From: Reclinomonas americana ATCC 50394
Taxonomy: Eukaryota
DNA length: 37,938 nt
Direction of reading: 5' to 3'
NCBI GenBank assembly: GCA_048213135.1
Contig: PS015173.1
Span: forward strand, 62,001 to 99,938
Part shown: in pieces, positions 1-22,963 of the stretch
Position numbering within the stretch: position 1 is the stretch's first letter
How the letters are laid out: every line of letters starts with the position of its first letter
Translations under genes and position numbers: made by a program
Notes under the pieces: generated by a model
What the model was told of the DNA's origin: nothing
Databases searched by the model: none
Seen by the model: only the letters and a program-made list of their open reading frames with translations

Positions 1-3000
1 GTTCCAGAACGCCATTGATCTCCAGCGCCGCATGCGCAATCTCAATGGCGAGCAGTGCGTGGTATTCCTCGACGAAGCCGGTCAGTTGTGCCGTACCCTA
101 CCCCCCGATGTCCAAGTTCTTGCTGAGTTGCCTTCATTGTTGTTTCAGGTCTGCCGTCACAGCGCAAGCAGGCACTGAAGGTCACCCATGCCTATCTGGA
201 CCATCCGGTCGTGTCTTCTGTGTTTTTGTCCAACACGACACTCGACGCAGCGTGAGTAATTGTGTACGCCCGCTGTCTCTTTTGTGGTGCTCTCGTTCTC
301 AACAGTTTTGACATTACAGCAAGACGAATCGCATGATCCAAGTGCTGCGCCCGCTCTCGTCGGAGGCCGAACTACGCGAGCTCGCGCACGGCTTCCTCAC
401 CGACAATTCACCGCAGGCAGCCACTCCGTACCTCGAGGCGCTTGCGGAGGGGCTGTGCAGGGGATTCAAGCGTGTGGTTGAGTTTGCCGATAACCTCTTC
501 CACATGCGCGATTTCGTGTACTTTTTGCGGTATCTGCGACGAGCCGCCTCTCGTGACGGCGCTCTGGGCGATCAGGTGCGAGTGTGCATTTGCTTGCGGT
601 GAGAGTGCTGCCCCGCTGTGCCCAAGAATGGCTCTTGTACTGCGCAGTTTGTCGTGTCGGTCGAACACTTTGTGGCCGGCGTGTATCGCAACTTTGGTGG
701 CATTCCGTCTCACCGATTGCGCCAGGTGCTCCTTTTTTTGTTGTGCGCACGTGATCGTTTCAGTGGCATTGGTGGCTCACCGAGTCGTGTGTAACATTGG
801 CCAGCTGTGTGACATGTTTGTTGACGAGGTGAACCGTGCAATCGTGGAAAGGTTCGACCCTCCTCCTGAGCACATGCTGCTGCTGATCGACGAGCGGCGT
901 ATGCAAGACTTCTCGGTGGTCAACGCCCTGCGTGGCAGCCTGGAGGAAAGGCTGAAGGAGGACGAGGACCCGAATCAGGTGTGCAATGTGATGCGCACGC
1001 GTGTGTGTGTGCGCCGTTGACGACTGACGATGTGTGTTGCTCGTGTTCGTCCACGTAGGCCCCGTTCCGCTACACCCTGCTTATCGACCCGACCGAGTCG
1101 CAGCTGTCGGTGCAGCTGCTGTACGACCTCAAGAGTGCGTATAAAACTGAAACCGTAGCTATCGAGTGTGTACTGACCAGGCGAATCTCTCTCTCTCTCT
1201 CTCTTTTGTCAGTTGTGGATCCTGATCGCACGGTGGTGCGATGTGTCACTGCGGATTTCGAGCGTGATGACGACCAGCTTGTCAATCGGCCTTTGGTTCT
1301 TGCTCGCATTGTCGACGCCATGCTCAAGGGTCAGACGGTGGTTCTCATCAACGTTGCGTCTCTCTCTCTCCTGCTGGTCGTCTTGTGGCTTCCTGGATTG
1401 CCAACGAGTCTCGAAACAATCACACAGGGTGCGACCATCTTTACATCGTTGTACGATGTCTTCAATCGGCACTTCATGTGCGTCAAGGGCCAGTACTATG
1501 GTGTGTCACCAACAGTGCGCAATGTCTTAGTTGTTGATATTTACCTCCTTTGTTCCTCGCAGCCAATGTGGCCATCGGAGCCATGTCGCGCTACGTTGTC
1601 GGTGAATATCACTCTTGTCTGTCCCTTAGACTTCTTCGTGTTGTCCACTACTGACACTGTCCGTTGGGTGGCTAGTGCATCGCGATTTCCGTGTCATTGT
1701 CCACTTGCCACTCAAGTCGTTGCCTACTACGCCGCTGCCGTTCTTGAATCGGTGTGTAGCCATGCCCTGTTTTTGTGTGAGTGCAAACTTGCGTGCGCTA
1801 ACTCTCGCCACCTCGTCAGCTTTGAGAAATTCGTTCTTGGTGCCACCGACGGTTTGTAATGCAAGAGGCACCATCCGCGATGTTTGATTCTGATGAAAGC
1901 TTCCATTTGATACATCACTTAGTGCTGGACGAGATGCTGCTTGATCCACGAGTCGCACGCATCCCGACCGTGGACGGTGGATCGGCGCCGCTGTTGCGCG
2001 CAGTGTCTGAAGGATGCCATGTTGCGTGTGACATTAGTTGGTTTTCGTGTGGTGCGGAGAGCTGACTTGCGCGGGTGTGACGCACAGGAATTCGTACGCC
2101 AGGTTGATCCTACCGCATTCTTTGGCCTGCATGCTGCAGAGACGGTTGCCGCTCTCTTCATCAGCGTCGCTCGTCAGAGCGCTGGCGGACTGCCGCTAGT
2201 GACTCCTCCGTTTGCCATGCCCCCTCTCAGCCGGCAGGCAGCTGCGCTGGCCGCTGCCAGTCGCTCAGATCTCGATCCCGATCAGTTGCAGACTCTCATC
2301 CGCCTCGCCAATTTCCACCTGTTGCAATTGGTGCGACCGGAGACGCTGTACAGCCTTCGGCACCGGCTGCCGGTGGTGTACTTGTCGGAGGTTGGTAATC
2401 CATCCTATGTGCATCTGCTAGTCAGAAGACGACACATGCTTATTCACTCCCCTCACTCTTCTTGGCGTGCAGTACCTGGTCACACAGGAGCACCTCTCAG
2501 TGTACGCACTGCTGTCGCAAGTGCTGCGACTGCGACTGGCTCCCAATGGCGCTGCGGAGGCTCGTGATCGGACGCCATCCAAGTGGGTGATTTACACTCG
2601 CTCGTCGTACGAGCTGGCGCAGTTGCATCAGCGCCCATCGCTGCTGCGAGTGCTCCTGGCGCCGGTGCAAATGGAGCCCGGGCAGGATATCGCCGATGTG
2701 GCGCAGGTTTGTTTTGGCTTCGTCTCAAACTATGCATGTGCCACGTGCATGCTTGCTCAAGTGTTGTGATGCACAGATTTCCGTACTCGGTTCCTTCATG
2801 TCGCAAGAGGACTGCGCAGCCTCGGTGCGCGATTTCTTTGCCAGCCGTCGACGCCTGCTGTTGGTGACAGCGGACATGTTGCGTAGATCACGCACTCGCT
2901 TCGGTCGAGAGAGATGATGCATTCTGAAAAGCATTTATTATTCCTCTGCTGCAGGTCGGTCGTGTCCACTCGCCAAGTCAACTTTTGGCGCTTCCAAGTC

Positions 3001-6000
3001 GACGAGCAACTGCGCCAACTGGCCGGTGCTGCTGCCGAGGGCGAGAGAGCGCCGGTCGTGGTCCTCATTCAGCATTTGCCACCGGAGCTCGTCTCCAACC
3101 AGTTCGGTGCGTGCTCACTGGACGCCACACCACTGATCAACAACTGGACGTATACGTACGTGGACTCGCTCGGTAGGTTGAATTTGTTTGTTCAAAGCGC
3201 TGCGTTGAAGTATTCGTGTCTCATGTGACTATCAAGGCTTGTCGACTGGATCTGCACATGACGACGCAATCGTCGCCGCTGATGCGCAGGGTGCTGATGG
3301 CGAGCAGCCGGCCGCAGTCATGGGCGCAGTTCACGCACGTCAGTGGATGGCTGTGGCATTCGGCCTGACGCAGCGAGCGGTATGTTTGTGGTTGGTGTTG
3401 TTTGACTCGGCTCTGTTGTGTGTACTGATGCGCTGCAATGGTCTCTGCAGGCCGCCGATGACGGACAACTGGGCGAATTCGACAGCCTCTTTGAGTCCTC
3501 GCTTAATGCCGTCTTCAACGTCTGCAATGTCACTGCCGTGCGGCTTCCGCAGTCACTTGTTCTCCGCCATGCGTCGGCGTTTTACAAGGCGCCTATGCCG
3601 ACTGCAGCCATTCCTCCGGCAACTCGACTGGCCGTGTTCCGCAAGGTACGTCTAAGGGACCACTCTTCGACAGCAGAGATGTTGATGTATTGATTGCTTG
3701 TTGCGTAGGTTCTGGAAAAGCACCCGCAGCTCAAGGAGGATGTCGTGCAGCGCTTCGTGAGCATGTGGAACTTGATGATGCTATCGCGCATTGTGGACTC
3801 GAGCTGCAAGGTCCTTACCTGCTTCCTTGATTTCTCTCCGATTTCGTCGCATCTGCTGTGCTAACTTGCTGGTGACTGCCGCTACTGCAGAGCATCTTGC
3901 GCGGCGACATTGTGCGGTCGTTGCTGGATGTCATCCTGTCGAGCATGCAGGAGATGATGCAGGGTCAGCTGTCCAACATTGTTCGGGCCTTCTGCGAGCA
4001 TCTGTCTTTGGAAAGCGTACTTCGCGTGCTGTTTGACGACGATGCCAACTTGGCGGTGCATGCCGAGTGGCTCACAGTGTGCATTCGCTCCCTCGAATCG
4101 TCACGTCCGACCGGCTCCGGCAGCGGCACTGGTGCATTGACATGCTCAGTGCCAATGGGCAAGGACCTCATCGCTGAGCCGCCCCGACTGCCACTATACG
4201 ATGTTGCGTGTCCATCTGTGTTTGTACAACGCACACTTAAGCCTTGTGAGAGGTGGCCAGCTCAAGTGGTGTTATTTTTCTCTTCGTTGAACACAGTACC
4301 TCGCGTCTCGCATGCGTACTCTGGTGCGACGAGCTGTTCGACGTGTTCCGGAGCGTCGCGACGATCCCGAGGCTCTTGCCGAGCAGCTCGACTTGCTGCT
4401 CCGCAAGAGCACTGTGGCCCCGCTGTGCGCTACGATCGAGCAACGCGACTGTTGCGTGCGTTCTTCGCAATTCATGCAGATTAAGTCATGCGGAGCTCAC
4501 CCGACACTCCTCCTTGCTTCACATGCAGTGCTGTGGAACAACTGCCTGTACGACTTCCTCACTCGTAGTCTGGGTCTGCCACTTCGCGGCTTGCCTGAGC
4601 GCCTGTTCAATGTGTTTGCGAACCTGCTGGAGCTCCTCGACTCGCGCCGTGGCAAGATGTGCTCCATGTTCGTCTCGCTGCATCTGCAACGACCGCTATT
4701 CGCATTCGCTTTTGCGTCACTCCGACCACTGTTGGAGATCGCGCCGGGCGAGTGCGTGCAGCTGTTTGCGGATCTGGAGCGCGCAGGCACTGTGGAGGAG
4801 TTCCGACGGACACTCGTTGGTCGCGATGTGGGAGTGCTGTTCAATGCCGTCGTCGACATTGCTCACGGCCACGCCGCCGATGCCGACTTGCAGAAGCGCA
4901 TGACGGCGCTGGAAAGCACGCTACTCTTCTACTTTAGTCGAGTCGGCAGTCGTGAAAAGCTGCTGCCGATGGTGGCTGACGCGCACGAACGCGCCAAAAT
5001 TGACGTGCTTACGGTTCGCTTGGACGTCCTCGGTCAATGCGATCACTGTTCCCAAGCATGGTTCTGACCACATGCTTGCTTGACGTGTTTCAGGTTGTAC
5101 ATCTGTGGCTCCATCAGCTGCAGTTCGGCAACGAGTCTGCAGAGGTGCTGATTCGAGATCTGTCGCGCATTATCGACGACGTCGAGCGTGCGGTGCGCGA
5201 GGCTCGTCTGGTAAGCTGTTACATCTGAATCATTCCGTCCGTCTGCGGTTGTCTCACTAACACGTGTCGCAAAAGCCCTTCGGAGGCGTGATGGAACTCG
5301 TGCGGCAGCTGATTCGCGCCGAGTATGACCGCCGTCATGGAGTGATTGATGGACAAGTGGTGGCTGGATTCCTCTTCGAAGTCCTGCAAACATTTGTGTC
5401 TGCACCGTTGTTGGAGGCAGGTGTGCGCGAGGACCCGGCCGTCCAGGCTCAGTGGCTCGACGGTCAGGCCAGTGCAATGAGACTGCTGAATCCGGAGCAG
5501 GCCGATCACTCTCGCTTCGTGCGTAATCAGGAGCGCACTTGTCGCCGCTCACGCCGCTGTCGCCTTCTCAATCATGGTTTTGTGTGTATAGTTCTTCAAC
5601 GAGTTGCCGCGCGATCTGCGCGCTCAGATGCTGCTGAAGATCGTCCGCGAGGCACTCTCGTCGCCCCATCACGAGGCCAAGGAACAGCTCTTCAGCGCCA
5701 TGAGCGACGAGATTCGCATGGGTATCGCCAGCCCGGAGCAAGGCGCAGCTGCAGGTGCTGCCGCGCCTGCCTTTGTTCCGTTGGATCTCTGTGCGGCGGA
5801 CGTACTGGCAGATGCGGCGTTTGTGTCGCGCTTCGACGTACTGTGCTACGAGGTCAGCTGTTCTGCCTCTTGCTGCCTTTTTGTAATGCGCACACTTACC
5901 GATTCCGCTTCGTGCAACAGGTGTTTGCAGAGTACATTCGTGGGTTCACCGTGCGCGACTGCGTGCAGTACATTCTCTCGATTGAGCAGCAAGTACTGCG

Positions 6001-9000
6001 CGACCCAGGCGCCAAGGTGCACTACAATACCGTACGCGTTCAACATGGCAGTAGCAGTTGAGTCTCACCCGCTGTTTCTCTCTGTCTCTCGCTTGCGTGT
6101 TTCACAGTTGTCTGGTGACGTGTTCGGGGCCGCACTTCGTGTCCAACTCTTGCGAACATTTGCCTCGACGCTCGGCAGCGATCCACGACCACCCATCGAA
6201 GTTGCGTCGTGCGATGAGTTGAACTCTCTCTCCGTGCTGCGTTGTGTTGCTCATGGTGATCGCCAGTTGCTACGAGATGTGAATGTGGTCGGCGATGTCG
6301 CTACCGCCGAACGCCTGTTGCGCCAGGCGCTGGCTTCCGGCCAACCGGCTCAGTTGTTCTTCTTCGGCTCCATTCCGGTGCGACTCCTTGCGTGTGTCTT
6401 CGATTGGTTTTAAGCATGGTCTTTACGCGGCTTTCGCTTGTCACATGCATATGCAGACACAAGACCGGCTGGTGACCGTGCTGCGTTCGCGTGAGTTCCT
6501 CGACGCGCTGGGCATGGTGCAAAACTGGTTCGTCGATTCGGAAGTTGGCGCCGCCTCGTCGCACCAGATGCCATTCATGCTCGATCCGACGCACCCACAC
6601 CATGTGGTCTTCACGGCTCTCCGCACTGCGATTGCCAACAATAACCCTCAAGTTTGTGCACTCGACTAGCTGCCTACTTCAATGGAGCCACACACTCATT
6701 TGTCGCACAATGTTCTTTTCTTGCAGGCGGTGGTGCAGCTCGTGACAGAGCGAGTGAATCAGGCCGGTGGCGACGCTTCAGCGATCCTGGAAACGCGCCA
6801 CGTGCTTCGCATGTGCGTGTTGGCCATCGCGTACCACGACTACTTCTGCCGCTGCCGCGAGAGTGCTTGCCTCGTCACACTGCTGGACGACGCCGCCTAC
6901 CAGGGCGTTCGAGATGCGCTGCTGCTGGATTCGCACGCGGGTTCGGCGGGTCGTGAGCGTCGCATGTTCCGCTTCTTCTCGGTTATGCCGCCCGACGTTC
7001 CTGATCGCTACGCCAACGCATTCGCGTACATTTTTTCGCTCCAGTTGTGTTTCCTCTGTCTCCCATGCCACTTCTCGGCACAGTGGTTAACGCACTTGCT
7101 TACCGTTGCAGTGCTGTGCAAAACGATCCGGCCCTTGCGATCAAGCGCCACTTCTTGTTTAACTTGCTGCTCACCGCTGTCAGCCTGCCGCACGATAGGA
7201 GCCATTTGTACCCACGCATCTTCTGTCCGACGGTGAGATCGTCGCTGCGGCGTTGACTGCCGTCGTTTTCGCTTCTCACAGTGGTGGTTTGACTGACTTG
7301 CAGGAAATTGACGGTGCCAGCGAAATCGGCATTGGCTCTGCTGACTGTCACCGCAAGATTTGGGACTGCGGCTACCAGTATGACGTGCAGACTGGTTTGC
7401 AGCAAGGTCATACGTTTGACGGCAACACGCTGCACCGGTTGACCATGAACGCCATTACCTGTGCGTTTGCTTATTGCATGTGCACCATCGTCGGGGGAGA
7501 CTGACAAGTAGAATGCGCATCCTTGCAGGGGGCTCCACTGCCATGTGCTTCCTCATCGACCCGGAGGTTCACGCGGAAAATATTCGAGCCGGCCGGTATG
7601 TGTGTGTGCATCATTTTTTTGCGTAATGCACGACAGATTACTGACAGAATGTTCATCGGTAGGCCATACCATTACTTGAGTTGAGTTGCATCGTGCTGCC
7701 GCGCCATGTGCGACCGAGCTCACGAATTGCTCCTTTTCTTTATCGTGGCATTTGCAGACGCCTACGGAGATTTTGCACGTGAGCGAGTCGATGGTATCGA
7801 GGTCCAGCGCAACCTGTCGCAGCAAATCGCCATCTACGCCTGGACGAAACCTTCAGTGTTCTTTGATGAAGTCTCTGCGCACGGTCTGCATCTCCTATGC
7901 TGGCGCTGTTGTCTTTTGCGGTGCTGCTGACATGGCGCTTTGTGTCTGGTAGCTGCGGTCACCGATGTGTCGTTCTACATGACGCAGGCGTTGGATCTGT
8001 GGCGAACAGAGGCGTGGCGAGCGATTCGTGCTGGCGGCGCTGATGTTCTGCGTGCGCATTTTACGACAGAGCCGCAAGGTGAGTGGCTGGATCGTGTATG
8101 TGAAGTAAGAGGCGACGCGAGAGCTTATTCGTGAAACCATCATGTAGCCAAGGGCTATGAGAATTCCTGGCGCGATTGGTCATTCGCGCATTTGGTGGGC
8201 GCCGACTATGTGGCACTGAAGGCGCCGTACGAGGGCGCAGCCCGCCGTGCGGCCGAGCCCGTCGACCGTGCGTTGGAGTGGCATAACAGGAACATTGCAA
8301 ATGTGGGCCTCCATCGACTGCGCTTCCCATCCGTTGACTCATTCCGCGATGCGCTTGGTACGTGATGTCATCAAGAAGGCGATGTCGTGTGAAGTAATGG
8401 CCTCATGCTCACCATCGTGTGCCGGTTTGCAGGAGCGCAACGACCCGCGCTTGTGTACAAGTTCTTTGGCAAACGGCGCCATTTGTCCATGTTGCAGCAC
8501 ATTCCGCTGTTGGTGCACTTCTACAATGCGATCCACCAGCTGGTGGACCACCGTTGCGTTGGGCGCTGCTCTGCTGCTTCTCTCATCGCGTTGACTGTGG
8601 GTCACAGGCCTCACCGAGGAGCAAGCCTGCTCCTTGACTGTGCGTACCGTCATTGCTGAGCTCGAAGAGCGCGCCGACATGCGTCGCGAGTTGCTGGAGC
8701 TGTGGAACCAATTCCGAGCGGCCACGACGGAGATTGCGGAGGTGTTTGCTCTGCTACCTGGTTGCGGAGAAGACGACGATGGTGGCGATGAAGACGGCGG
8801 CGCCGACGATGGGGCACACCGCGGGCAGGCCGACGCAGCTGCGCGGGCAATCCCACTCATTGACGACGAGACGCCGTTGATGGTGCTCTTATCGGTTTGT
8901 CGACAGTTTGCTGGCTTGCTTACTGTTGTAATATCACCGCGTGGGTTGATATTGACTGGACGTTCTCTGCTTGTACATGTAGTGGGCCGACGAAAACATG

Positions 9001-12000
9001 CATGATGCAATCTTGCAGATTGTGGAGATGCTAGTTCGCTTGCAGAACTCGATGCTCCGATCGGCGCACGACGCGCTTCCGCAGCTGGGTGTGACACGCG
9101 TGTCGGATGTGGCCCATCTTCATCTGATTGACGTCCACAAGGACTTCACGATGCAGCAGTCGCTGTTGACTGGCGACCTGGATAATTCATTGCAGGCGTA
9201 CGGTGTCACCTGTGTGAGTGTGGCGGATGATGGGCAGCTGGTGGTGGACTGGCCTCGCCTCAGTCGATATGTGCGTATATCTGTCCCTTTCTCACTATGA
9301 TACGCGTGCTGACTGTGTGTACTTGCAAATGATGCAGCTCGTGTATCGCCATGTTCTTGGTCGCGCGTCAATCGTCAGCAGCAGAGATTCTACTGGTGGT
9401 GTGCGGCGAGTGTGGGAGCCCAAGACTCAACAGGTGCAGGCCGCGCACGCCGGTGCTGCGGTTGCTGCCGAGGGTGCAGATGCTCAGTCGGGTGGCGACG
9501 GTGCCATGAGTGCACTGGTCGAGTTACTCCCCCGAGTGACTGACCAGTTGTGTCCACCACTTGAGGGGCGCCAGGAGGACGAGTTGCAGAGAATGTTTGG
9601 CCGCGCAACTAGCGTGCAGCTGTCACAGGTGGCAGAGCAGCTGGTCAGTGTCCTCCGCAGTTGCCTGGCCGAGCGGCTGTTCTTGGACCGCCATTCGCGT
9701 CTGGTTTGTATTCGTGTGATCCACCGCAGCTGTGCAGGAGAAGTCCACTAATTGGCGAGCAGACGATTGAGGATGTGTGCAACGAGTACTGCGGAGTCCC
9801 TGTCACCGGCTTCCTCACGCATGCGTGCGGCCGCCCGATCAAACATTTGCGCAGTCTGTGCAACGTGGTGGTCGAACTGTTCGCCGACATGGCGGAACTC
9901 GGCGAGCAAGCGGCTGGAGGGAACTTGTTTGGCGGCGCTGGTCAACAGCTCGATCGCCCATTCTCCCTTCAGTGTCGAGTTTCGTTTTTCACGAGCTGCC
10001 CATGGGCGTGTTATCTCGCAGCTGACATGTGAATCTTGCAAGACTGCGCTGGACGCAGCACGACAGCGCATTCTAATCTCCAGCGACAGCATGGAGGCGC
10101 GGCGTACTGTGGCGTTCTTGCAACGTGTCAGTCAGGCGCTGCGCGAAGAATTCATTGTGGAGGCACTGCAAATGCAGCCACAGATGTCTCTTTGCGAGGC
10201 TCTGGGACAGGAGTTGGATCGGGAAGCGCACGGCGACATGATTGATGTCTGGCTGCCTGCATCGCTGCTTGCCGAGCACTATTCAACGTACTTGCGCTTC
10301 CTGCGCAAGGTTATCGGTGTTTTGTCCCTGCGCTTCCTGCGTGCCAATACGCAGCAGTATGCCGAACATCCACCGCCGTGGTGCGTCCCGGATCGTCCTC
10401 TGCAGCAGATGGCATTCCTGTCCGAGGAGGAGCCTCCGACGCCCGCAAATTCCGAGGCAAGCTCTGCTGATCGCCGCCGCCCTCGCCACGAAAGCGGCGA
10501 CCTCGGCGTGGACGAAGATGCGGTGGAGGACGATGTGGAGATGGTTGAATTCCCCACGGCCTTCAACCGCGGTGGCCGAGGTGGCGGCGGGCAGCAGCCG
10601 GCTGGTGCACAGGACTTCTTCCTGCATCAGGCACGCCGCATGCACTTGCTGCAGAGTTTGCAAGATGCCGTGGCTGTGGGAGACATCGAGGTTTGCGACA
10701 CTGGTGCTATCTCGTGTGCTGCTGCTGAAGCTGATGTTAACGACTGCATCAGTCCATGTTCACCGTTCTTCGAGAGGATGTGACTCTGCTCGAGATGCGC
10801 AACTCAGACGGCCTCGGTTTGTTGCACCTGGCCGCCTGGCACAATCAAGCCGACCTATTCCATGTGCTGGTTGAGCAAGTGCAAATGGACCCGTGGATGA
10901 GAAATGCCGACGGAATGACAGCGTTGCACTTTGCGTTGCGTACTGCCACTCTCATCCTTGTCCTTCTCCTTGGCCACTGCTGCTCACAAGAGAAAAATCT
11001 GAAAACAGGTGCTTCCGCAACGCCCAGGCTGTCATCGGAGCTCTTGCTGACATGGGTCCTCTCGACTTCACCATTGAGACCGAGGACAAGAGAACGCCGC
11101 TTTCGCTTGCGGAGGAGGGTGGTCACGTTGAACTGGTTGGCAAGATTCAAGCCGTGCTCCATGGGTGCGCCTGTCATGTATTTGTTCTCCTCGCCGTTGC
11201 ACAATGGTCATCACAACTGACTCTACTGCATGACCGGTGCAGCGACCCTGCGCCGTCAGACGATCCAGTGGAGCTTATGCCCATCGGCGTTGCTACATTG
11301 GATGTGGTGTGGTCCCTGCTTGCAGAAGGCGTCGGCGCGTCGCCGTTGCCGGCAGATTCTGCAGTTGGAGATGACGTCCAGTACCTGCAAAGTGCCGTGT
11401 TGGCGCTGGGACTGCAGCCGCGATCCACGCAGAGTATGTCTGTGATCGAGGTCGTGCCGAGTGCGCTGGGAGACGAGAGCGGAAGCTCGTGGCGCTGCGA
11501 TGCGGCGGCTGAGTGGAGCATGAGTGCAGAGGGCACCATCGCCGGTCACCCTGTGGACTTTACGGCTTTGGCGGAGGAGATTGTCGCCGGCCGAGTCGAC
11601 TCGTCTCGTGATCTGGCCGCTCTGTGGGCTCTGTTGGTGGCCCAGCCGCCTTCGGCGGATGTTGCACGGCCTTCATGGGTTGTGCTTGTCACCTCCAGTC
11701 GTCGCGTTCCTGCCGCATTGTTCCGAGTGGGTCCAGATCTGGCGGAGGCCAGCCAACTGGCCGCCTTCGAAGCCGACCCTCCTAAGTCTGCTGACGAGTG
11801 CTTGTTTGTGGGCCTGCTTATGTCCAGTCGGGAATTCTTTGCTCTGGAGGTCGCGGATGAAGGGCTGCTGCAGGCTGCTCTTCTGCAGCGGTGGCAACCG
11901 CCACCGGTTGATACCGCGGCCACAGATCAACAGTCGGCATTGATGGAACCGAGAGAGCTTGTGGCACAGTTTCGCGCACTTGTCCTTGTCTTCTTGCTCG

Positions 12001-14237
12001 TCTATTGTTAGAAAGAACTGACGGTATTGAGTGTTGCAGCTGTGTACTGAGCACTCCGCTCTCGCTCGTCGGTGTGCTGCCAACAGAGGGCGTGGCCGAT
12101 GTTCCTGTCGACCAAACTACGGCGGCGGCGGCGGCAATTGAGCACGCCGTTACTCAATTTGGCCTATCCATCGTCTCAGGTCACGGCTCTTTGCTACATG
12201 CACTGTGCGCTCCTCAGCCGCCAGAGTCCGCTGGGCCCTCTGCGGAGGTCAGTATTATGGGTGCATGCTGCGTGTTGTTGAAGTTTTCCCCCCTTCTCAA
12301 TCAAGTCGCTGTCGAGTGCAGATCATGACGGCAGAGGCGGCGGCGGATTGCATCGGCGAGTGGACTTTGCTGAGCGAGAGCACCGCCGTTCTGCCAGTCA
12401 GCCCGTTCTTTGATATCGACAAGCCAGATGGCGTTCAAGTCTCACACGTGTTGCAGCAACTCGGTACGGTCGTCGACGACTTTTGCCCGACTTCACTGCT
12501 GCGCTCCGATGCTGCGTTGGCGTGGGTCGCGGCGCAACGGCTGGCAGTCAACCTCTTGATGCTGGTGTTCTGCACCGATGGTCGCTTGATGTGTGTCCGA
12601 TTCAATGCTGGCGAGGTGGAGCTGGTGGGCGAGGATGCGCCGGCCCGTTTGATCCCGCTGGCATACATTGAGGCGGACCGCGTCTTCTGCCGCCTTTGTG
12701 GTGACTACCATTGTGTTAACAAGCTTCTTTTCCGCTGTGAATGATCTTGTCGCTCACTGCACGTGCACGGCAGACGACGGGACGGAGCGCATGTCTCGTG
12801 TGCTAGCTGCTTTGTTTGGTGAGGCGGAAACAGGTGGTGTGTCACTCGTTGATCCTACTCATGTTGGTATTGTTCGATGGCTACACGTACACAGGCACTG
12901 AAGACGAGGAACAAACGGAGGTCGTGCCTGTTGCTGCTGCTCTGGAGGAGATGGATCAATCGGTGGCAGTCGACGTACTTTTGTGGCGGTTGCGTCACAA
13001 TTCGGTGCAGATCATGTGGGGTGGAGTGGGTGTCCCAGGCGTGTCGTACGTGGTGTACCTTGGAGACGAGATGATTGGAGGTGAGTGTCAATGTATGCTC
13101 GCCACATTCGTCGCTGCAGATAGGGTGGCTCATTGTGTGCGCACGTGCAGAGACCGACCGACATCAAGTGCCGTTTAGTTTGCCCACAGAGCGCCTGCAT
13201 TCAGGCGCTGAGCTGGCGATTATTGTGCGAGTGCGTTGTGGAGACACGCTGTGGGCGCCGTCGCCTGTGCTTCGCACTGTTGTTCCGAGTGCGTGACCGC
13301 TATGTATATATTATGTAGATGTGCAGCCTGTGCACTTCCACTCAACGCGACATGCACAGATCCGCCTCCGTGGACCTCGGAACGCCAAGAGGAGCTGGAG
13401 CGCAGTGCCAACCTGGTGCTGAAATTGCGCTGCAAGCCTTCTGTGAAACCGCGTTCGAAGAAGCAAGCAGAACCACTGTTGGCCAAGGTGCGCTCTTGCT
13501 CTGCAGGAGATTTCTTTGTGTTGACGTGTGTGCCTCATCCACGCATACTGCAGGCCGCAAGCAGTGAGTGTGGAGCGTATCGTCTGTTGGACGGTTACTT
13601 TGAGTTTGTGTGGGTACGTTTTGGCATACCACCAGCGAATCACGTCGTGAACTTCATCTAACATCGTTCGGCAGTCACACGCGACAAATGGCATCTCGGA
13701 GCCGGTGCCGGAAGAGTACCACACGTCGACTGCGGCCGCGCTGGCTGAGATTGCATACACTCTCACGCTTCCTGGACTGGACTGTTGCGTTGAGCTGCTC
13801 GCAGTTTGTCGCACTTGCCAGCTCCACTCAATCGTGTTTTTTGTGTCCCTCCCCCGACACCGCCAGGTGCTCATGATGTGGTGCGTTGGGTCTTGGCTGC
13901 CGACGACGTTAGCTGGACAGAGATTGTGCAACTGCAAGCTGGTGAGACGGTCGGGGCCATGGCGACGGCGATTGCGGAAATCCTGATTTCCATTCGCGAG
14001 ACCGCGCCTGGTGCGTCCGCCCTTCGGCAGAGTTTAAGCCTGCACAATGTCTTCCACTAACTCACTCTTGCAGGAGGATCGTGGGTCACCAACGCTCCCG
14101 AATTCGTGCGCGGAACGTGGTCGACGCTGCGCGACAAATGTGTCGCCCATGCCGGCGATGAGATGCACGATACTCTTCTCGAGCTGTGCGACTTTGTGTT
14201 GAGTCTGGTGCCACCACCACCACCACCACCACAGTAA
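1..14237 (+). CDS. RNF213: RNF213/mysterin-like giant AAA+ ATPase / E3-like protein, 5'-truncated by the window edge, dozens of exons, with a C-terminal ANK + tandem domain + FN3-like extension
   Basis: Spliced exons (2-80, 149-251, 320-575, ...) read CVVFLDEAGL..LKVTHAYLD..VFLSNTTLDAAKTNR, FHMRDFVYFL, YRNFGG, RYTLLID, AMLKGQTVVLINGATIFTSLYDVFNRHF..GQYYANVAIG..VHRDFRVIV..PLPFLNRFEKFVL. These are colinear with recalled RNF213 AAA4-AAA5 motifs (VVLDEVGL, ISNWALDPAKMNR, LRDYYSL, RNFSG, LYESLYDALNQYY, VHPNFRLIV, PIPLINRLEKHYL). The junctions I checked join in phase through to a last exon at 14074-14237 ending PPPPPPPQ-TAA. Not every internal junction was verified. The symbol means 'like', not proven orthology. 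Confidence 0.85.
10650..11160 (+). other. Ankyrin-repeat domain (about 3-4 repeats) within the RNF213-like gene
   Basis: Spliced translation LQDAVAVGDIE..RNSDGLGLLHLAAWHNQADLFHVLV..RNADGMTALHFACFRNAQAVIGALAD..EDKRTPLSLAEEGGHVELV matches the ANK consensus G-TPLHxA..G..xV. Confidence 0.85.
12960..13290 (+). other. Fibronectin type III-like domain within the RNF213-like gene
   Basis: The pattern HNSVQIMW...SYVVYL...LHSGAELAIIVRVRC...W.PSPVLRTVVP resembles the FN3 signature (SxxxxW, Y-x-V, L-x-P-G-x-x-Y-x-V-x-V). Confidence 0.5.
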
Positions 14238-14319
14238 TGTACATCGTGCTGTTTTGTTGCAATTGAGGACGATTATCATGATTGTTTTTACCACTCGTGC
14301 CGCATTCCGGTCGGCCTTG

Positions 14320-15577
14320 TCACGCAAATGTGCGATGCACCGCCTTTTGCGGTCTCTGCTCTGCAAACGGTGCAAACTGGTAGCCCTCGTAGCCCAGCTC
14401 CGCCAACTTGAGATTGCGCTTGCGTTCCCTAGACAAGAGTCTTGTCACGCGCCGCTCAGCCTGCACAGGAGTGCGCTCCGCGTCGTGGCGCAGTCGCTCC
14501 ATTTTCCGGCGAGGCAGACGCACAAACTTGCGCCCGGCGTTGCGGAACAGATCAGGATGAATGCGATCCGGCGTCAACAACTCGCACTTCAGCACGCGAT
14601 CGAACATGATGTAGTTGTGCATGGCCTCGGCCGCCAACTCGGCCACCTACAACGACCAGGTAAGCACACGCCGGCTTCACGAGTGCGCACCAACAACATC
14701 ACGTTACCTCTTTCCTGGCAAACTCGACAAAGGCATAGAAGCGCGACTTGCCCGTTCGCCGCGCCTTGGCCATGCGCACATTGGTGATGCGTCCAAACTG
14801 CTTGAAGAAGCCACGCAGCTGGTTATCGTAAAAGCCGTGTGGCAGATGACCAATGTACAACACTCCGCGCTCGTCCTGCACGCAGAAGACGTACAGATTC
14901 AGCACGCTAGCTGTCTCTCAAGCTGTCGTCTCCCGGCATTGCGTAACCTTGTCGACTTGCATCGCATCGTCTTGCTTCTTCGCCTTGGAGAGAGGCAGCG
15001 GCACCACCGCTTCGTCGTCATCATCGTCGTCCTCCACACTCGCAAGGGCCTTTTGCAAACCCGCGGGAGCCGGCATTGTCGGCACCAGCTCGACATCGTC
15101 GGGCAACTCACCCTCGTCGGATGAGTCATCGACCACGGCCGCCGCCTTCTTGCCCTTCTTGCCCGGTGCCAGTCGCCGCTTCTTCTTTGGTGACTCACCC
15201 TCGCCCTCTTCCTCCACGGCGATAGCCTCCACCTTCTGCACGGAGCAACAAAAGGGGGGGCGTGTAAGGGCTATGTGCACATTCACATCATCAACGACAT
15301 GCCCAGCACACACGCACACACACACACAAACCTCCTCTTCCTGCGGCGCATCCTTGACAGAGGGTGTGCGAGCTCTCTTTCGTGAAGGCTTGCTGCTTGC
15401 GGCGGCTGCGGGGGCGGGACTGGCAGCAGCAGCAGCCTTGGTCTTGCGAGCAGGAGGCGGCGTGCTCTCGCCCTTCTTGTTCAGCGCATCGAATACCTTT
15501 TGTGAGGCGGCAGACGGCTCGCGTGAGAGGAGAGCCTTCTTCTGCGGGCGGCGCGCGGGCGCCTTCTTGCGATCCAT
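14320..15577 (-). CDS. NOP15: Nucleolar RRM protein Nop15/NIFK (MKI67IP), ribosome biogenesis; about 4 exons
   Basis: GVLYIGHLPHGFYDNQLRGFFKQFGRITNVRMAKARRTGKSRFYAFVEF..EVAELAAEAMHNYIMFDRVLKC..IHPDLF is the characteristic Nop15/NIFK RRM. It has a K/E/D-rich N-terminus from ATG 15577 and a stop at 14320. Confidence 0.93.
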
Positions 15578-16603: not shown

Positions 16604-19600
16604 TCAGTTGTGCTTGCGACGACTCTTCTTGCTCTTGTTTCCGTGGCTGCAGCGGGCCGTGATCTGACGGACCAGCTTCTCCGCTTGCTTCGCCTGTCGC
16701 TCGTCGCGCTTGGCCAGACGGCGTTGGTGGATCGACTTGGCGTCACGAACCGACTTCTTGGCTTGCTCCAGCGCCCGCTTGGCGGCAGCAACGGCCTTGC
16801 GGACTTCGGCGTTGGCTCGCTGGAGAGCGTTCTGGCTCGCCGCCGTCTCCTGCGTGTGTGAGAAAACAAGAGAGCGAGTGAGTGACAAGGGATGATATGC
16901 GTTGTGGGTTCGCTCCACGAACCTGCTTCACGCGTCGCTTCCACGTTGGCGACACGCATTCGCACTGCTGTTGATACCGCCTCCGGAGGGCCTTGATTTT
17001 GTTGACGAGCAGCTGGCATGGCCGGCTCTGCTGCGTGGAACTTGCTTCCGCCAAGGACAGCAACGGTAGCGATCCCGAATCGCCGTCTGGTGGCGTACCA
17101 TCGGCGTGCAGAACACCATCGGCAGGAGGAGCGCCAACGGCAGGCGGAGCACCATCGACAGGCGGAGCGCTAACATCGGCAGGAGGAGTGCCATCGGCAG
17201 GAGGAGCGCTAACATCGGCAGGAGGAGTGCCATCGGCAGGCGTGCCATCGGCAGGCGGAGCACCATCGGCGGGCAGAGCGCTAACATCGGCAGGAGGAGT
17301 ACCATCGGCAGGAGCGCCATCGGCAGGCGGAGCGCCATCGGCAGGCGGAGCGCCATCAGCAGGCCAGGCAGCATCGCCACCGGCAGGAGGAGCGCCATCG
17401 GCAGGCGGGGCACCATCGGCAGGAGGAGCGCCATCGGCAGGAGGAGCACCATCGGCAGGAGGAGCGCCATCGGCAGGCGGAGCGACATCCGCAGGCGGAG
17501 CGCCATCGGCAGGAGGAGCACCATCGGCAGGCCAGGCAGCATCGCCACCGGCAGGAGGAGCGCCATCGGCAGGAGGAGCACCATCGGCGGGCGGAGCGCT
17601 AACATCGGCNNNNNNNNNNNNNNNNNNNNNNNNNNNNNNNNNNNNNNNNNNNNNNNNNNNNNNNNNNNNNNNNNNNNNNNNNNNNNNNNNNNNNNNNNNN
17701 NNNNNNNNNNNNNNNNNNNNNNNNNNNNNNNNNNNNNNNNNNNNNNNNNNNNNNNNNNNNNNNNNNNNNNNNNNNNNNNNNNNNNNNNNNNNNNNNNNNN
17801 NNNNNNNNNNNNNNNNNNNNNNNNNNNNNNNNNNNNNNNNNNNNNNNNNNNNNNNNNNNNNNNNNNNNNNNNNNNNNNNNNNNNNNNNNNNNNNNNNNNN
17901 NNNNNNNNNNNNNNNNNNNNNNNNNNNNNNNNNNNNNNNNNNNNNNNNNNNNNNNNNNNNNNNNNNNNNNNNNNNNNNNNNNNNNNNNNNNNNNNNNNNN
18001 NNNNNNNNNNNNNNNNNNNNNNNNNNNNNNNNNNNNNNNNNNNNNNNNNNNNNNNNNNNNNNNNNNNNNNNNNNNNNNNNNNNNNNNNNNNNNNNNNNNN
18101 NNNNNNNNNNNNNNNNNNNNNNNNNNNNNNNNNNNNNNNNNNNNNNNNNNNNNNNNNNNNNNNNNNNNNNNNNNNNNNNNNNNNNNNNNNNNNNNNNNNN
18201 NNNNNNNNNNNNNNNNNNNNNNNNNNNNNNNNNNNNNNNNNNNNNNNNNNNNNNNNNNNNNNNNNNNNNNNNNNNNNNNNNNNNNNNNNNNNNNNNNNNN
18301 NNNNNNNNNNNNNNNNNNNNNNNNNNNNNNNNNNNNNNNNNNNNNNNNNNNNNNNNNNNNNNNNNNNNNNNNNNNNNNNNNNNNNNNNNNGGCCTTCGGC
18401 TTCTCCGTCGGCTTCGGCTTCGGCTTCTCCGTCGGCTTCGGCTTCTCCGTTGGCTTGGGCTTCTCCGTCGGCTTGGGCTTCTCAGTCGGCTTGGGCTTCT
18501 CAGTCGGCTTGGGCTTCGGCTTCTCCGCCGGCTTCGGCTTCGGCTTCTCCGCCGGCTTCGGCTTCGGCTTCTCCGCCGGCTTCGGCTTCGGCTTCTCCGT
18601 CGGCTTGGGCTTCTCAGTCGGCTTGGCCTTCGGCTTCTCCGTTGGCTTCGGTTTGGGCTGCTCCGTCGGCTTGGGCTTCGGCTGCTCAGTTGGCTTCGGC
18701 TTCGGCTTCTCCGTCGGCTTCGGCTTGGGCTTCTCCGTCGGCTTGGGCTTGGGCTTCTCCGCCGGCTTGGGCTTCTCCGTCGGCTTGGGCTTGGGCTGCT
18801 CAGTCGGCTTGGGCTTGGGCTTCTCCGCCGGCTTCGGCTTGGGCTGCTCAGTCGGCTTGGGCTTGGGCTTCTCCGTCGGCTTCGGCTTCGGCTTCTCCGT
18901 CGGCTTCGGCTTGGGCTTCTCCGTCGGCTTGGGCTTGGGCTTCTCCGCCGGCTTGGGCTTCGGCTTCTCCGCCGGCTTGGGCTTCTCCGCCGGCTTGGGC
19001 TTCTCCGTCGGCTTGGGCTTGGGCTTCTCCGCCGGCTTCGGCTTGGGCTGCTCAGTCGGCTTGGGCTTGGGCTTCTCCGCCGGCTTGGGCTTGGGCTTCT
19101 CCGCCGGCTTCGGCTTGGGCTGCTCAGTCGGCTTGGGCTTCGGCTTCTCCGTCGGCTTCGGCTTCGGCTTTTCCGTCGGCTTCGGCGGCTGTGCTGGCTT
19201 CGGCGGCTGTGCTGGCTTCGGCGGCTGTGCTGGCTTCGGCGGCTGTGCTGGCTTCGGCGGCTGCGCTGGCTTCGGCGGCTGCGCTGGCTTCGGCGGCTGC
19301 GCTGGCTTCGGCGGNNNNNNNNNNNNNNNNNNNNNNNNNNNNNNNNNNNNNNNNNNNNNNNNNNNNNNNNNNNNNNNNNNNNNNNNNNNNNNNNNNNNNN
19401 NNNNNNNNNNNNNNNNNNNNNNNNNNNNNNNNNNNNNNNNNNNNNNNNNNNNNNNNNNNNNNNNNNNNNNNNNNNNNNNNNNNNNNNNNNNNNNNNNNNN
19501 NNNNNNNNNNNNNNNNNNNNNNNNNNNNNNNNNNNNNNNNNNNNNNNNNNNNNNNNNNNNNNNNNNNNNNNNNNNNNNNNNNNNNNNNNNNNNNNNNNNN

Positions 19601-20983
19601 NNNNNNGCCATCGGCACGAGGAGCTGCCATCGGCAGGCAGGCAGCGATCGCAGGCGGAGCGCCATCGGCAGGAGGAGCGCCATCGGCAGGCGGAGCGCCA
19701 TCGGCAGGCGGAGCGACATCGGCAGGCGGAGCGCCATCGGCAGGCGGAGCGCCATCGGCAGGCGGAGCGCCATCGGCAGGCGGAGCGCCATCGGCAGGCG
19801 GAGCGCCATCGGCAGGCGGAGCGCCATCAGGAGACCAAACAGCACCGGCGGGCGGAGCGCCATCGGCAGGCGGAGCGCCATCGGCAGGCCAGGCGGCATC
19901 GCCACCGGCAGGAGGAGCAACGTCGGTAGGCGGGGCACCTTTAGGAGTCCAAGCAGCATCGGCAGGCGGAGCGCCATCGGCAGGAGGAGCGCGATCGGCA
20001 GGTGGCACTCGCCCATGCGGCTGCGCCGGCTTATACGGCTGCGCTGGCTTCGGCTTCCCCTTCGGCTTCGGCTTCTCCGTCGGCTTCGGCTTCGGCTTCT
20101 CCGTCGACTTGGGCTTCGGCTTCTCCGTCGGCTTCGGCTTGGGCTTCTCAGTCGGCTTCTCCGTTGGCTTGGGCTTCTCAGTCGGCTTGGGCTTCGGCTT
20201 CTCCGTCGGCTTGGGCTTCTCAGTCGGCTTGGGCTTCGGCTTCTCCGTCGGCTTGGGCTTCGGCTTCTCCGTCGGNNNNNNNNNNNNNNNNNNNNNNNNN
20301 NNNNNNNNNNNNNNNNNNNNNNNNNNNNNNNNNNNNNNNNNNNNNNNNNNNNNNNNNNNNNNNNNNNNNNNNNNNNNNNNNNNNNNNNNNNNNNNNNNNN
20401 NNNNNNNNNNNNNNNNNNNNNNNNNNNNNNGCTGGCTTCGGCGGTGGTGGCGGTACTGCCCTCGGAGGTGGAGGTGGTGGCGGCGGTGCCCTCGGAGGTG
20501 GTGGTGGCGCTGGCCTCGGTGGTGGTGGTGGCGGCGCTGCCCTCGGAGGTGGAGGTGGTGGCGGCGGTGGTGGCGGCGCTGCCCTCGGTGGTGGAGGTGG
20601 TGGTGGCGCTGGCCTCGGTGGTGGTGGTGGTGGAGGCGGCGCTGGCTTCGGCGGTGGTGGTGGTGCTGCTCTCGGAGGTGGAGGTGGTGGCCTCCTTGCT
20701 GGCCCACCAGTTGCTGCTGCAAGACTGATCACAGCTGCATCTTCCTTGTTCTCGCCGTCGAACAAGTGCCCATAGTCAGACTGCAAGAGGCTCCACTGGC
20801 CTTCTTGCTCATCGTTGAAGATGACGTCAACGGTGTCGCTCTCGAAGGCTGTGTGGCAATACATGGATTGGCGGTGGGGCTGTGAGGTAATGTGTTGTTG
20901 CTTGACTCACCATGCGCTTGCAGAGCCAGAACTGTCACGCCCAATGCCGCGACAAGGAGGAGAAGCAAGAGAGGGTATCTCAT
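16604..20983 (-). CDS. Secreted proline-rich repeat protein (extensin/mucin-like) with a basic coiled-coil C-terminus; spans 3 gaps
   Basis: ATG 20983 gives the signal peptide [25 protein letters not shown]. After intron 20849-20910 come an acidic N-domain, poly-Pro, and [14 protein letters not shown] and PPADGA arrays. After intron ~16850-16922 the last exon is [38 protein letters not shown]. Continuity across the N-gaps is inferred. Confidence 0.72.
17115..17609. repeat. 18-bp tandem array (ggcggagcgccatcggca-like; PPADGA on the - strand)
   Basis: Directly visible; runs into the gap at 17610-18390. Confidence 0.95.
18391..19314. repeat. 18/24-bp tandem array (PTEKPK[PK]) followed by an 18-bp array (PPKPAQ)
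   Basis: ggcttcggcttctccgtc-type units at 18391-~19180; ggcttcggcggctgtgct units at ~19180-19314. Confidence 0.95.
19607..20275. repeat. Second PPADGA array (~19607-20000) and second PTEKPKPK array (~20060-20275)
   Basis: Same units as the other arrays, directly visible. Confidence 0.93.
20431..20692. repeat. GGT/GGC/GGA-rich repeat encoding [12 protein letters not shown] poly-proline blocks (- strand)
   Basis: Directly visible. Confidence 0.92.
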
Positions 20984-21030
20984 GCTGGAAAGCTCTTGGC
21001 CTTCTCTCGCACCAAATCGCTTTGAGATGA

Positions 21031-21605
21031 ATTCATAAGTTGAGATTCGAGCGGGAAGTAACGGTGGGTATACAAAAACGGCTACACAAGACGATTTCAG
21101 CGAAGAAGTTGTCGGTATGGTGAAAATGAAAAAAAAAAGGCTTTTTGCATCTGATGAACTTGAGTCTCGGCGTGAAAACAAAGAAAATCCAAGAGGAATT
21201 GCCGATAAAAGCTGGCATGCGCAGCTGCAGCACCGAAATCAGAAAATCGGGATCCTGACCGTGGCTTTCAGGGTGCAACATTGCTCCACCGACCTACTTC
21301 AGTGCATGGGTTACGCCAGGTCCGAAAACACGTGGCCCTAACCACGCAGGTCCGGAACTGCTTGGTCCAGAACTGCTTCCGATTCGAATTCGAATGCTGC
21401 GTAGCGTGTTTCCGTTTTTTCCATTCTCGAGTTGCATCTAAGCGCAGCCCCGTGCCTTATGGACATCGCATGCGCAAGCGTTCTGTTCATGCAGCCATCA
21501 TGGAAAAGCGTACCTGGCACGGCATGCAGTACACAGCCGCAAAAAAACACTGTAAATCCGACGAATCAACAAAAAAACCACTTCAACTAACTCTTATCTT
21601 ACGCA
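21031..21605. promoter_or_regulatory. Putative bidirectional promoter region between divergent genes
   Basis: More AT-rich with A-runs, lying between ATG 20983 (-) and ATG 21606 (+). Positional inference only. Confidence 0.4.
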
Positions 21606-21698
21606 ATGGCTTCGTGGCTGTTCGACAAGCTGCGGGGTGAGTGTTCCCTCCCTCCACCTCTCCTCCCTCCCCTTCCGTCTCTCTCCCCCTTCTCCCTC

Positions 21699-21760
<62 letters not shown>

Positions 21761-22880
21761 NNNNNNNNNNNNNNNNNNNNNNNNNNNNNNNNNNNNNNNN
21801 NNNNNNNNNNNNNNNNNNNNNNNNNNNNNNNNNNNNNNNNNNNNNNNNNNNNNNNNNNNNNNNNNNNNNNNNNNNNNNNNNNNNNNNNNNNNNNNNNNNN
21901 NNNNNNNNNNNNNNNNNNNNNNNNNNNNNNNNNNNNNNNNNNNNNNNNNNNNNNNNNNNNNNNNNNNNNNNNNNNNNNNNNNNNNNNNNNNNNNNNNNNN
22001 NNNNNNNNNNNNNNNNNNNNNNNNNNNNNNNNNNNNNNNNNNNNNNNNNNNNNNNNNNNNNNNNNNNNNNNNNNNNNNNNNNNNNNNNNNNNNNNNNNNN
22101 NNNNNNNNNNNNNNNNNNNNNNNNNNNNNNNNNNNNNNNNNNNNNNNNNNNNNNNNNNNNNNNNNNNNNNNNNNNNNNNNNNNNNNNNNNNNNNNNNNNN
22201 NNNNNNNNNNNNNNNNNNNNNNNNNNNNNNNNNNNNNNNNNNNNNNNNNNNNNNNNNNNNNNNNNNNNNNNNNNNNNNNNNNNNNNNNNNNNNNNNNNNN
22301 NNNNNNNNNNNNNNNNNNNNNNNNNNNNNNNNNNNNNNNNNNNNNNNNNNNNNNNNNNNNNNNNNNNNNNNNNNNNNNNNNNNNNNNNNNNNNNNNNNNN
22401 NNNNNNNNNNNNNNNNNNNNNNNNNNNNNNNNNNNNNNNNNNNNNNNNNNNNNNNNNNNNNNNNNNNNNNNNNNNNNNNNNNNNNNNNNNNNNNNNNNNN
22501 NNNNNNNNNNNNNNNNNNATTCGTCGCCCACTGGAGGAATGCCGGCCGCTGGGCCGGTGGTGGTGACGACCACGGCGTCCGTCATTTTGGCGCAGCACAT
22601 CAAGGCGCGCTCTGCGGCAGCCGCGGCGGCCGCAGCGGAAGCAGCTGCAGCACCCGCTGGCGACTCGCCATCATCGCCGCCTGCGGCGGTCACGCCGGAA
22701 GAGGCTGCCGACGCAGAGAGCGACGATGATGCAGAATTCTCCGGCTTCGTGTCGGCATCACCGACCGCGTCTCCCCCGCCGGCACCGTCGCCACCCGCAG
22801 CAGCGCAAGAAGCCGCAGCGGCCGATGGCGCCGCATCCACACCCGTGGCTGCTGACACAAAACCGCACGAGGAACAATGA
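21606..22880 (+). CDS. Hypothetical protein; middle hidden in the gap at 21761-22518; Ala/Pro/acidic low-complexity C-terminus
   Basis: MASWLFDKLRG is followed by a gtgagt donor and a pyrimidine/CA-rich intron. After the gap an open frame ..ESDDDAEFSGFVSA..KPHEEQ* is followed by AT-rich 3' sequence. Confidence 0.55.
21704..21760. repeat. (CA)n microsatellite, intronic, abutting a gap
   Basis: Directly visible. Confidence 0.98.
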
Positions 22881-22963
22881 AACTCTAATGATTGTTTGTT
22901 GGTATTATGTATGCTACGTGCAAAACAACAACACTTTTTTTCATTCTTTTCTTTGTTTCTTCC

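Follow-up and report, generated by a model that had tools for sequence, protein, structure and literature searches.

The window analysed is a stretch of 37,938 nucleotides from Reclinomonas americana ATCC 50394 (contig PS015173.1, forward-strand positions 62,001 to 99,938), and positions 1-14237 of it encode the rear part of a giant AAA+ protein followed by an ankyrin-repeat part on the same strand. The features recognised, with the methods used for each, are as follows.

2..80, + strand: first visible exon, the end of an AAA+ large subdomain with Walker B (manual reading, regex, exon model)
149..725, + strand: three exons, 149-251, 320-581 and 648-725, for the sensor region and lid belonging to this AAA+ module (manual reading, exon model)
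805..9940, + strand: mostly helical body of ~35 exons and ~2,250 codons with no recognised family (exon model, regex, Pfam, PDB)
9941..10090, + strand: weak link, 150 nt nearly devoid of coding signal (coding score, splice-path scoring)
10091..10690, + strand: single uninterrupted exon with an ATG start, A at -3 and G at +4 (ORF 9752-10780, coding score 0.338/codon)
10753..11164, + strand: ankyrin repeats, 3-4 including a cap in the preceding exon (~10600-11160 overall) (Pfam)
11243..11968, + strand: alpha/beta region A, ~240 aa (atlas, Pfam, PDB, AF2)
12040..12712, + strand: alpha/beta region B, ~200 aa (exon model, Pfam, PDB)
12895..13288, + strand: candidate beta-sandwich (FN3/Ig-like), ~90 aa (pattern by eye)
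13360..14237, + strand: tail exons of uncertain internal boundaries, a poly-Pro run and the terminal TAA, 14235-14237 (exon models)

Positions 1-14237 hold genuine protist coding DNA, dense in introns, on the + strand. Codon position 2 was poor in GC (0.42-0.47) relative to positions 1 and 3 (0.64-0.69). A codon model built from the exons of 2-9940 scored the exons of 10753-14207 at +0.209/codon in frame and at -0.31 and -0.33 in the other two frames; the reciprocal test gave +0.189 in frame against -0.28 and -0.22. Exon-chaining models predicted ~50 short GT-AG introns with a median of 68 nt, the 51 predicted acceptors being CAG (35), TAG (8), GAG (5) and AAG (3); these models are home-made, with ~10 weak junctions and approximate exon boundaries. 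The original prediction had pointed to phase-consistent splicing into the ankyrin repeats and the domains after them, and an open chain does run to 14237, but such consistency carries no weight of its own because exon chainers always find some open path, and the junction at 9941, between the core and the ankyrin part, is the weakest of all. The end of the chain, a TAA at 14235-14237 following the poly-Pro run, is the same as that originally given. Scans against Rfam and for tRNAs returned no match over the window and thus provided no spliced-leader clue.

The AAA+ module enters the window with an intact Walker B motif, VVFLDE, at nt 59-76 (manual reading and regex), and the exons of 149..725 carry the motifs KTNRMIQVLRPLS, MRDFVYFLRYL and YRNFGG. 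Pfam found no family in these exons. The language-model features of a protein atlas placed exon 324-581 with dynein AAA-lid clusters (0.90-0.91) and with unnamed eukaryotic clusters (0.97). The claim that a giant AAA+ protein is encoded was borne out by Walker B, the exons after it and the dynein-type lid features. No Walker A was matched by regex downstream of Walker B or elsewhere in the window, in the raw + frames or the spliced model, and as such the visible module would be the last active one. The gene carrying it extends upstream of the window, with only the rear of one module visible, and the rest of any AAA ring lies upstream of the window or is unrecognisable.

The helical body downstream gave no homologue to exon 4297-5025 among 1.84 billion proteins (0 matches), nor to 4297-5013 among metagenome contigs, and word-index searches for longer proteins with core exons 4291-5064 and 321-581 were empty. 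Modelling of 4297-5013 by AF2 without an alignment gave a pLDDT of 50.8, too poor to compare, and Foldseek on that model retrieved only designed or TPR-like generic helical repeats with a best E of 0.1. Across the whole gene, 43 pieces submitted to Pfam yielded no family above cut-off except ANK, and phmmer searches of the PDB with 10 exons retrieved only unrelated chains (E 0.18-1.5), all database queries being single exons, so that the sensitivity of the PDB comparison was low. The sub-threshold Pfam names DUF6066, DUF6560, Pex2_Pex12, Sigma54_DBD, Chal_sti_synt_C, FXMRP1_C_core, RMI1_N_N, DUF6392, KIX and DUF2484 were taken as chance.

Neither of the ligase fingers that define RNF213 was found. 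A regex for the RING matched neither the spliced model nor any of the three + frames of 1-14400, and the RZ finger had no match in the raw + frames or the spliced model, with no Cys/His cluster of that spacing. In human RNF213 the RZ finger comprises four Cys and two His (C4505, H4509, C4516, C4525, C4528 and H4537) and is the part of the protein that catalyses ubiquitylation of bacteria, RZ mutants failing at this (PMC11549300). The E3 and innate-immunity role first proposed for this locus is unsupported because the RZ, which ubiquitylates bacteria in RNF213, and the RING are both missing. Home-made models could have overlooked a small exon rich in Cys; the raw-frame scans speak against this. 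Two degenerate candidates considered by eye were set aside, an RZ in 7282-7460, the sole Cys/His exon near the expected place, in which the spacing differs and which had no PDB match to RNF213 or ZNFX1, and a RING in 4297-5013, which had no support.

Beyond the weak link, exon 10091-10690 matched no Pfam family. It carries, besides a helical region, a low-complexity acidic linker (~10400-10560) and the first cap helices of the ankyrin repeats. The presence of an ANK-containing part downstream on the same strand, as originally claimed, was confirmed by Pfam Ank_4 at 30.5 bits (E 4.3e-07) and in a second run at 27.2 bits (E 4.6e-06), both above the cut-off of 22.7. An intron lies near 10935-11027 within the repeats, its position being uncertain. 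The 3-4 repeats flanked by an acidic linker resemble ankyrin-repeat adaptor proteins, whereas the other ~800 residues of this part match no family. Region A had no Pfam family and no PDB match, its exon 11244-11966 had no homologue among longer proteins or metagenome contigs, and AF2 without an alignment gave a poor model (pLDDT 35.9). The atlas associated it with GAF clusters (0.92) at a recognition of 2182 (<2300) with only 129-132 shared features, making a GAF-like fold a weak lead.

Region B was likewise without a match in Pfam or the PDB. The two regions had been described as related domains of ~200 aa, which does not hold, as their local alignment reached a z of 0.5-1.0 with 80-158 of 500 shuffles attaining the observed score, and hhalign gave a probability of 0.15%. 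The predicted FN3 domain likewise came down to a pattern seen by eye, with no Pfam family at E<=1 for 12897-13079, 13126-13287 or 12807-13175 and none in the PDB. The candidate beta-sandwich comprises exon 12895-13080 and a second exon from ~13124 or 13153 to 13288, separated by a short intron (~13081-13123 or ~13081-13152), and because this intron splits the candidate each half-query represented half a domain.

The best explanation of these features, held tentatively and at well short of even chances, is that there are two + strand units, a fingerless RNF213-type AAA+ gene from 2 to ~10030 and a separate ANK gene at 10091-14237. The first unit would supply the last ~2,440 codons of a giant AAA+ protein of the dynein class, in which the last active ATPase module and the segment after it would follow the motif order of RNF213, and from which RING and RZ would both have been lost or never have been present. 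Its product may serve as a conformational switch or scaffold, gated by ATP, that would be incapable of RING/RZ ubiquitin ligation. The second unit (~1,100 codons) would open with a helical head and the acidic linker, continue through 3-4 ANK repeats and the two unassigned alpha/beta regions, and close with a possible beta-sandwich and a helical tail; its product may act as a protein-binding adaptor.

The division into two units turns on 9941-10090. The coding score there was 0.03-0.06/codon against 0.275 in exons, rising to 0.338 from the ATG at 10091, and the stretch holds an in-frame TGA at 10028-10030. The upstream frame meets this TGA both unspliced and via an intron at 9941-10021, after which three codons precede the stop; at 81 nt this intron alone among the candidates combines a typical length with a CAG acceptor. 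The original prediction allowed for a gene boundary at ~10500, which sits within the uninterrupted, strongly coding exon 10091-10690, so that a boundary would instead lie at 9941-10090. The extra part, which it put at ~900 residues, comes to ~1,100. Taken by itself, the choice between one gene and two is about even with a slight lean to two, unit 1 stopping at TGA 10028-10030 and unit 2 starting at ATG 10091.

It is less probable, and on the doubtful side, that a single gene joins a fingerless RNF213-type core to the ANK module via a weak or atypical intron. The introns available to it are 9941-10058, which at 118 nt keeps the frame open but would be the longest of all predicted, and 9941-9995, which at 55 nt needs a GAG acceptor, a class seen in 5 of 51 predicted introns, at least one of those five (spliced round a true stop) being an artefact. 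Both use the donor GTCAAC at 9941, unique among the 51 predicted introns. In splice-path scoring 9941-10058 reached 7.2, equal in effect to the stop-path through 9941-10021 (7.1), with 9879-9972 at 6.3, but the exon chainer yields an open path whether or not it is used. The core and the ANK part are alike in strand and codon style, and the 60 nt between the stop TGA and ATG 10091 are too small for a 3′ UTR, promoter and 5′ UTR, the only other estimable same-strand spacer in the window being ~950 nt. A TGA and an ATG within a linker or intron would also be the expected remnant of a past two-gene fusion. Against a single gene stand the lack of coding signal in 9941-10090 and the searches of metagenome contigs and for longer proteins, in which no relative of such architecture was found. 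Neither GC content nor ATG context told the two readings apart. The product of one gene would have ~3,570 residues within the window, its ATPase core bearing its own ankyrin-based target-binding tail.

The RNF213 affiliation given to the core in the two-unit reading begins with the order of motifs after Walker B, which would be collinear with that of the last active AAA module of RNF213 and the next one. Human RNF213 has a total length of 5,207 residues. On this length its end falls ~2,360 residues past E2845 (a residue named in PMC11549300), and here TGA 10028-10030 lies 2,416 residues past the Walker B Glu, so that the lengths agree. RNF213 is described as having a dynein-like core of six AAA units, of which AAA3 and AAA4 hold Walker A and B (PMC7311170, PMC11549300). 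With the vertebrate RNF213/mysterin (6TAX, 7OIK, 8S24) unit 1 shares a giant size, a dynein-like AAA+ module in which Walker B is followed by a lid and short motifs in apparently like order, a distance of ~2,400 residues between the last Walker B and the C-terminus, and an extended helical body that lacks annotated domains. It differs in having neither RING nor RZ finger and no sequence similarity by phmmer or Pfam, and possibly in having ~1,100 more C-terminal residues (ANK and more), an extension of a kind not described for vertebrate RNF213 in the available parts of PMC7311170 and PMC11549300. No RNF213 relative in a protist is described in the titles and abstract openings surveyed. Kinship of the core with RNF213 is plausible, on the basis of motif order. 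Of the RNF213-type AAA motifs originally reported, what stands is the end of an AAA+ module, Walker B included; the RNF213 label has no tool support, none of 6 core exons matching RNF213 chains in the PDB (phmmer, E<=10; single-exon queries of low sensitivity) and Pfam naming no family.

Unit 1 may alternatively lie outside the RNF213 family, as an orphan giant of the dynein/midasin class of AAA+ proteins with a lineage-specific long helical body, although this too appears somewhat unlikely. None of the tools tied an exon to RNF213, the atlas names dynein-type lids only and the defining fingers are missing; set against this, several short post-Walker B motifs appear collinear with RNF213, the length from Walker B to the stop fits RNF213, and a real dynein or midasin would register in Pfam, which none did. 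What unit 1 has in common with dynein heavy chain and midasin is the dynein AAA-lid character of its lid exon and a module of the class found several to a chain. Pfam, however, recognises neither family in any exon, and a MIDAS/VWA domain and a stalk or microtubule-binding signature are absent.

A more elaborate form of the one-gene reading, in which a single polypeptide fuses a fingerless RNF213-type ATP motor to an ANK, GAF-like ligand-binding and Ig-like module, is improbable. If true, it would represent a protist ATP-driven sensor or coat protein whose targets are recognised by its own tail without RING/RZ ubiquitin transfer, and would reveal a ligase-independent ancestral function of the RNF213 motor. 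The active, microbe-sensing RNF213-like E3 ligase extended by interaction modules, as first envisaged, has an AAA+ module with intact Walker B in its favour, and ANK repeats and a possible beta-sandwich that could bind targets, but is very unlikely with no RZ and no RING, given that RNF213 RZ mutants cannot ubiquitylate bacteria (PMC11549300).

RNF213 has been studied as a vertebrate immune ligase and as the moyamoya-disease ligase. Protist relatives with its dynein-like ATPase ring but with neither ligase finger would reveal the motor's own function, and a built-in ankyrin or ligand-binding tail on such a relative would add weight. The present data do not establish a fingerless RNF213 relative with a built-in tail, as kinship is no more than plausible and what looks like a tail may belong to the neighbouring gene. 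Beyond the end of the ankyrin part, a convergent RRM gene on the - strand has its stop ~82 nt past 14237.

The original prediction read the plus strand of 1-14237 as a single gene for an RNF213-like giant ATPase with a C-terminal extension of ankyrin repeats (ANK), two related domains and an FN3-like domain. The window is eukaryotic DNA with a G+C content of about 58%, and over 1-14237 the plus strand is GC-poor at codon position 2 and GC-rich at positions 1 and 3. Exons were modelled with our own exon-chaining dynamic programme, retrained iteratively, which scored codon log-odds, splice sites (by matrices) and intron composition. It predicted some 50 introns of the GT-AG type, 43-115 nt long with a median of 68 nt and a G+C of 0.50; among 51 predicted introns the acceptors were CAG (35), TAG (8), GAG (5) and AAG (3). 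When the codon model was trained on exons 2-9940 alone, exons 10753-14207 received a per-codon score of +0.209 in frame and of -0.31 and -0.33 out of frame, with the reciprocal test giving +0.189 in frame vs -0.28 and -0.22 out of frame. As cross-training gave positive in-frame scores both ways and negative out-of-frame ones, the codon bias is no product of circular training and, together with the plus-strand coding signal, bears out a real gene. The predicted end at 14237 was recovered exactly, the exon chain passing through a poly-Pro run to its stop codon, TAA 14235-14237.

The window starts inside a dynein-class AAA+ module, encoded by the first exons:

2-80, 149-251, 320-581 and 648-725, plus strand: first exons, read by hand and with the exon-chaining model

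In keeping with the AAA+ motifs predicted at the 5′ end, the Walker B motif VVFLDE lies at nt 59-76, followed in the first exons by a sensor region ending in KTNRMIQVLRPLS and by the lid motif MRDFVYFLRYL and then YRNFGG, with FRYTLLIDP and SLYDVFNRHF carried by later exons. Exon 324-581 has dynein-type lid features, adjoining dynein AAA-lid clusters at 0.90-0.91 in the protein atlas. In the ESM Atlas the same exon matched two unnamed eukaryotic clusters of ~72 aa (0.97 and 0.92), which may represent exon-sized pieces of proteins related to this one and could seed an alignment. Few members of these two clusters have a record, all of them rotifers. No Walker A motif was found downstream of the visible module in the raw plus-strand frames or the spliced model, which is consistent with this module being the last active one.

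The ANK-bearing C-terminal extension may be a separate gene. A gene boundary near 10500 can be dismissed since 10091-10690 is a single uninterrupted, strongly coding exon, encoding the first ANK helices as well as a helical region and an acidic linker. The weak point between the core and the ANK part is instead 9941-10090. Left unspliced, the preceding exon 9763-9940 (frame 1) reads into TGA 10028-10030, and the candidate intron 9941-10021 (81 nt), the only one combining typical length with a CAG acceptor, leads to the same TGA after three codons. The frame stays open with either of two rescue introns: 9941-9995 (55 nt) uses a GAG acceptor, seen in just 5/51 predicted introns and partly artefactual as a class, while 9941-10058, at 118 nt, exceeds every other predicted intron in length. 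The donor GTCAAC at 9941 has no second occurrence in the gene model. Splice scores (7.2 for 9941-10058, 7.1 for 9941-10021 and 5.7 for 9941-9995, the mean of predicted introns being 8.5) do not decide between the stop path and the open paths. In 9941-10090 the per-codon coding score drops to 0.03-0.06, compared with 0.275 in exons, and it climbs to 0.338 at ATG 10091, whose context bases are A at -3 and G at +4.

The TGA path, odd rescue introns, unique donor and low coding score over 9941-10090 speak for two genes, the upstream one ending at TGA 10028-10030 and the ANK-containing one starting at ATG 10091, an arrangement with a slightly better than even chance of being correct. A single gene, in which a rescue intron joins the core to the ANK part, is given a little under an even chance: two genes would be separated by a spacer of 60 nt only, the other same-strand spacer estimable in the window, upstream of an RRM gene, being about 950 nt, but the step in coding score at ATG 10091, the atypical rescue introns and their unique donor count against it, as does the a priori rarity of fusions of this kind relative to neighbouring genes.

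Kinship of the upstream unit (2 to about 10030) with RNF213 is plausible. The short motifs come in an order that would match RNF213 in its last active AAA module and the module that follows. In the exon model TGA 10028-10030 lies 2,416 residues past the Walker B glutamate, and human RNF213 ends ~2,360 residues past E2845, this similarity providing one indirect point for kinship. The position of E2845 is taken from PMC11549300. Database queries were single exons, which are weak queries at that size, and with these none of six core exons matched RNF213 in the PDB at E<=10, exon 4297-5025 had no match at E<=0.001 among 1.84 billion proteins, two word-index searches with core exons gave no match among proteins up to 2,000 residues, and no relative came up in two metagenome scans. 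In Pfam, ANK was the sole family above its cut-off across 43 pieces. An AlphaFold model of 4297-5013 made without an alignment had a pLDDT of 50.8, with Foldseek returning generic helical repeats only.

RNF213 is defined by two ligase fingers and the upstream unit has neither, with RING patterns, RZ patterns and correctly spaced Cys/His clusters all absent from the three plus-strand frames and the spliced model. RNF213 combines a RING with an RZ finger (residues C4505, H4509, C4516, C4525, C4528 and H4537), and it is the RZ finger that catalyses ubiquitylation of bacteria, with RZ mutants failing to do so (PMC11549300). The upstream unit would be a giant protein of the dynein/RNF213 class, gated by ATP, for which RNF213-style ubiquitin transfer would be impossible because both fingers are missing, and a switch, scaffold or remodelling role might be expected. 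The proposed E3 and innate-immunity role is unsupported, RING and RZ being absent and nothing pointing to immunity.

The predicted ankyrin repeats were confirmed, Ank_4 scoring 30.5 and 27.2 bits against a Pfam cut-off of 22.7, with three or four repeats, the first cap helices of which are encoded by the last part of exon 10091-10690. The two ~200-aa domains predicted to be related (11243-11968 and 12040-12712) are not detectably so, as their local alignment gave z 0.5-1.0, with the observed score reached by 80-158 of 500 shuffles, no 30-residue window pair reached the score threshold of 45 and hhalign returned a probability of 0.15%. The first of them gave a weak GAF-like lead (atlas 0.92), with recognition below the tool's own bar, no Pfam family, PDB match or homologue, and an AF2 model of pLDDT 35.9. 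An FN3-like pattern is visible by eye over two exons, but the domain itself is unproven, each half finding nothing in Pfam or the PDB. Whether tail or neighbour, the ANK-containing unit has the appearance of a protein-binding adaptor, with its ANK repeats possibly accompanied by an Ig-like domain and a ligand-binding alpha/beta fold.

A convergent RRM gene lies on the minus strand at 14320-15577 (RRM_1, E 6.1e-13), the N-terminal part of its product being Lys/Asp/Glu-rich and resembling NIFK by eye only. Its stop is ~82 nt beyond TAA 14235-14237, such that the 3′ UTRs of the two genes must be very short or overlapping. The region 16900-23700 is low-complexity and highly repetitive, its repeats being rich in Pro/Lys/Thr/Glu or in Ala/Glu in several frames, and probably reflects poor assembly of a satellite or of a gene rich in repeats. 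The only five N runs in the window are found here (17610-18390, 19315-19606, 20276-20430, 21761-22518 and 23284-23698), and between about 21 and 24 kb the G+C content drops to 0.33-0.46. Three further features follow:

24615-25670, plus strand: exon of a major-facilitator transporter (Pfam MFS_1, E 8.2e-33)
29092-33087, minus strand: extensive coding region whose reading frames stay open over long distances; two pieces searched against Pfam matched no family
36312-37297, minus strand: sedolisin-type peptidase gene (pro-kumamolisin activation domain, E 5.4e-29)

The peptidase gene has a signal-peptide-like start at ATG 37297.
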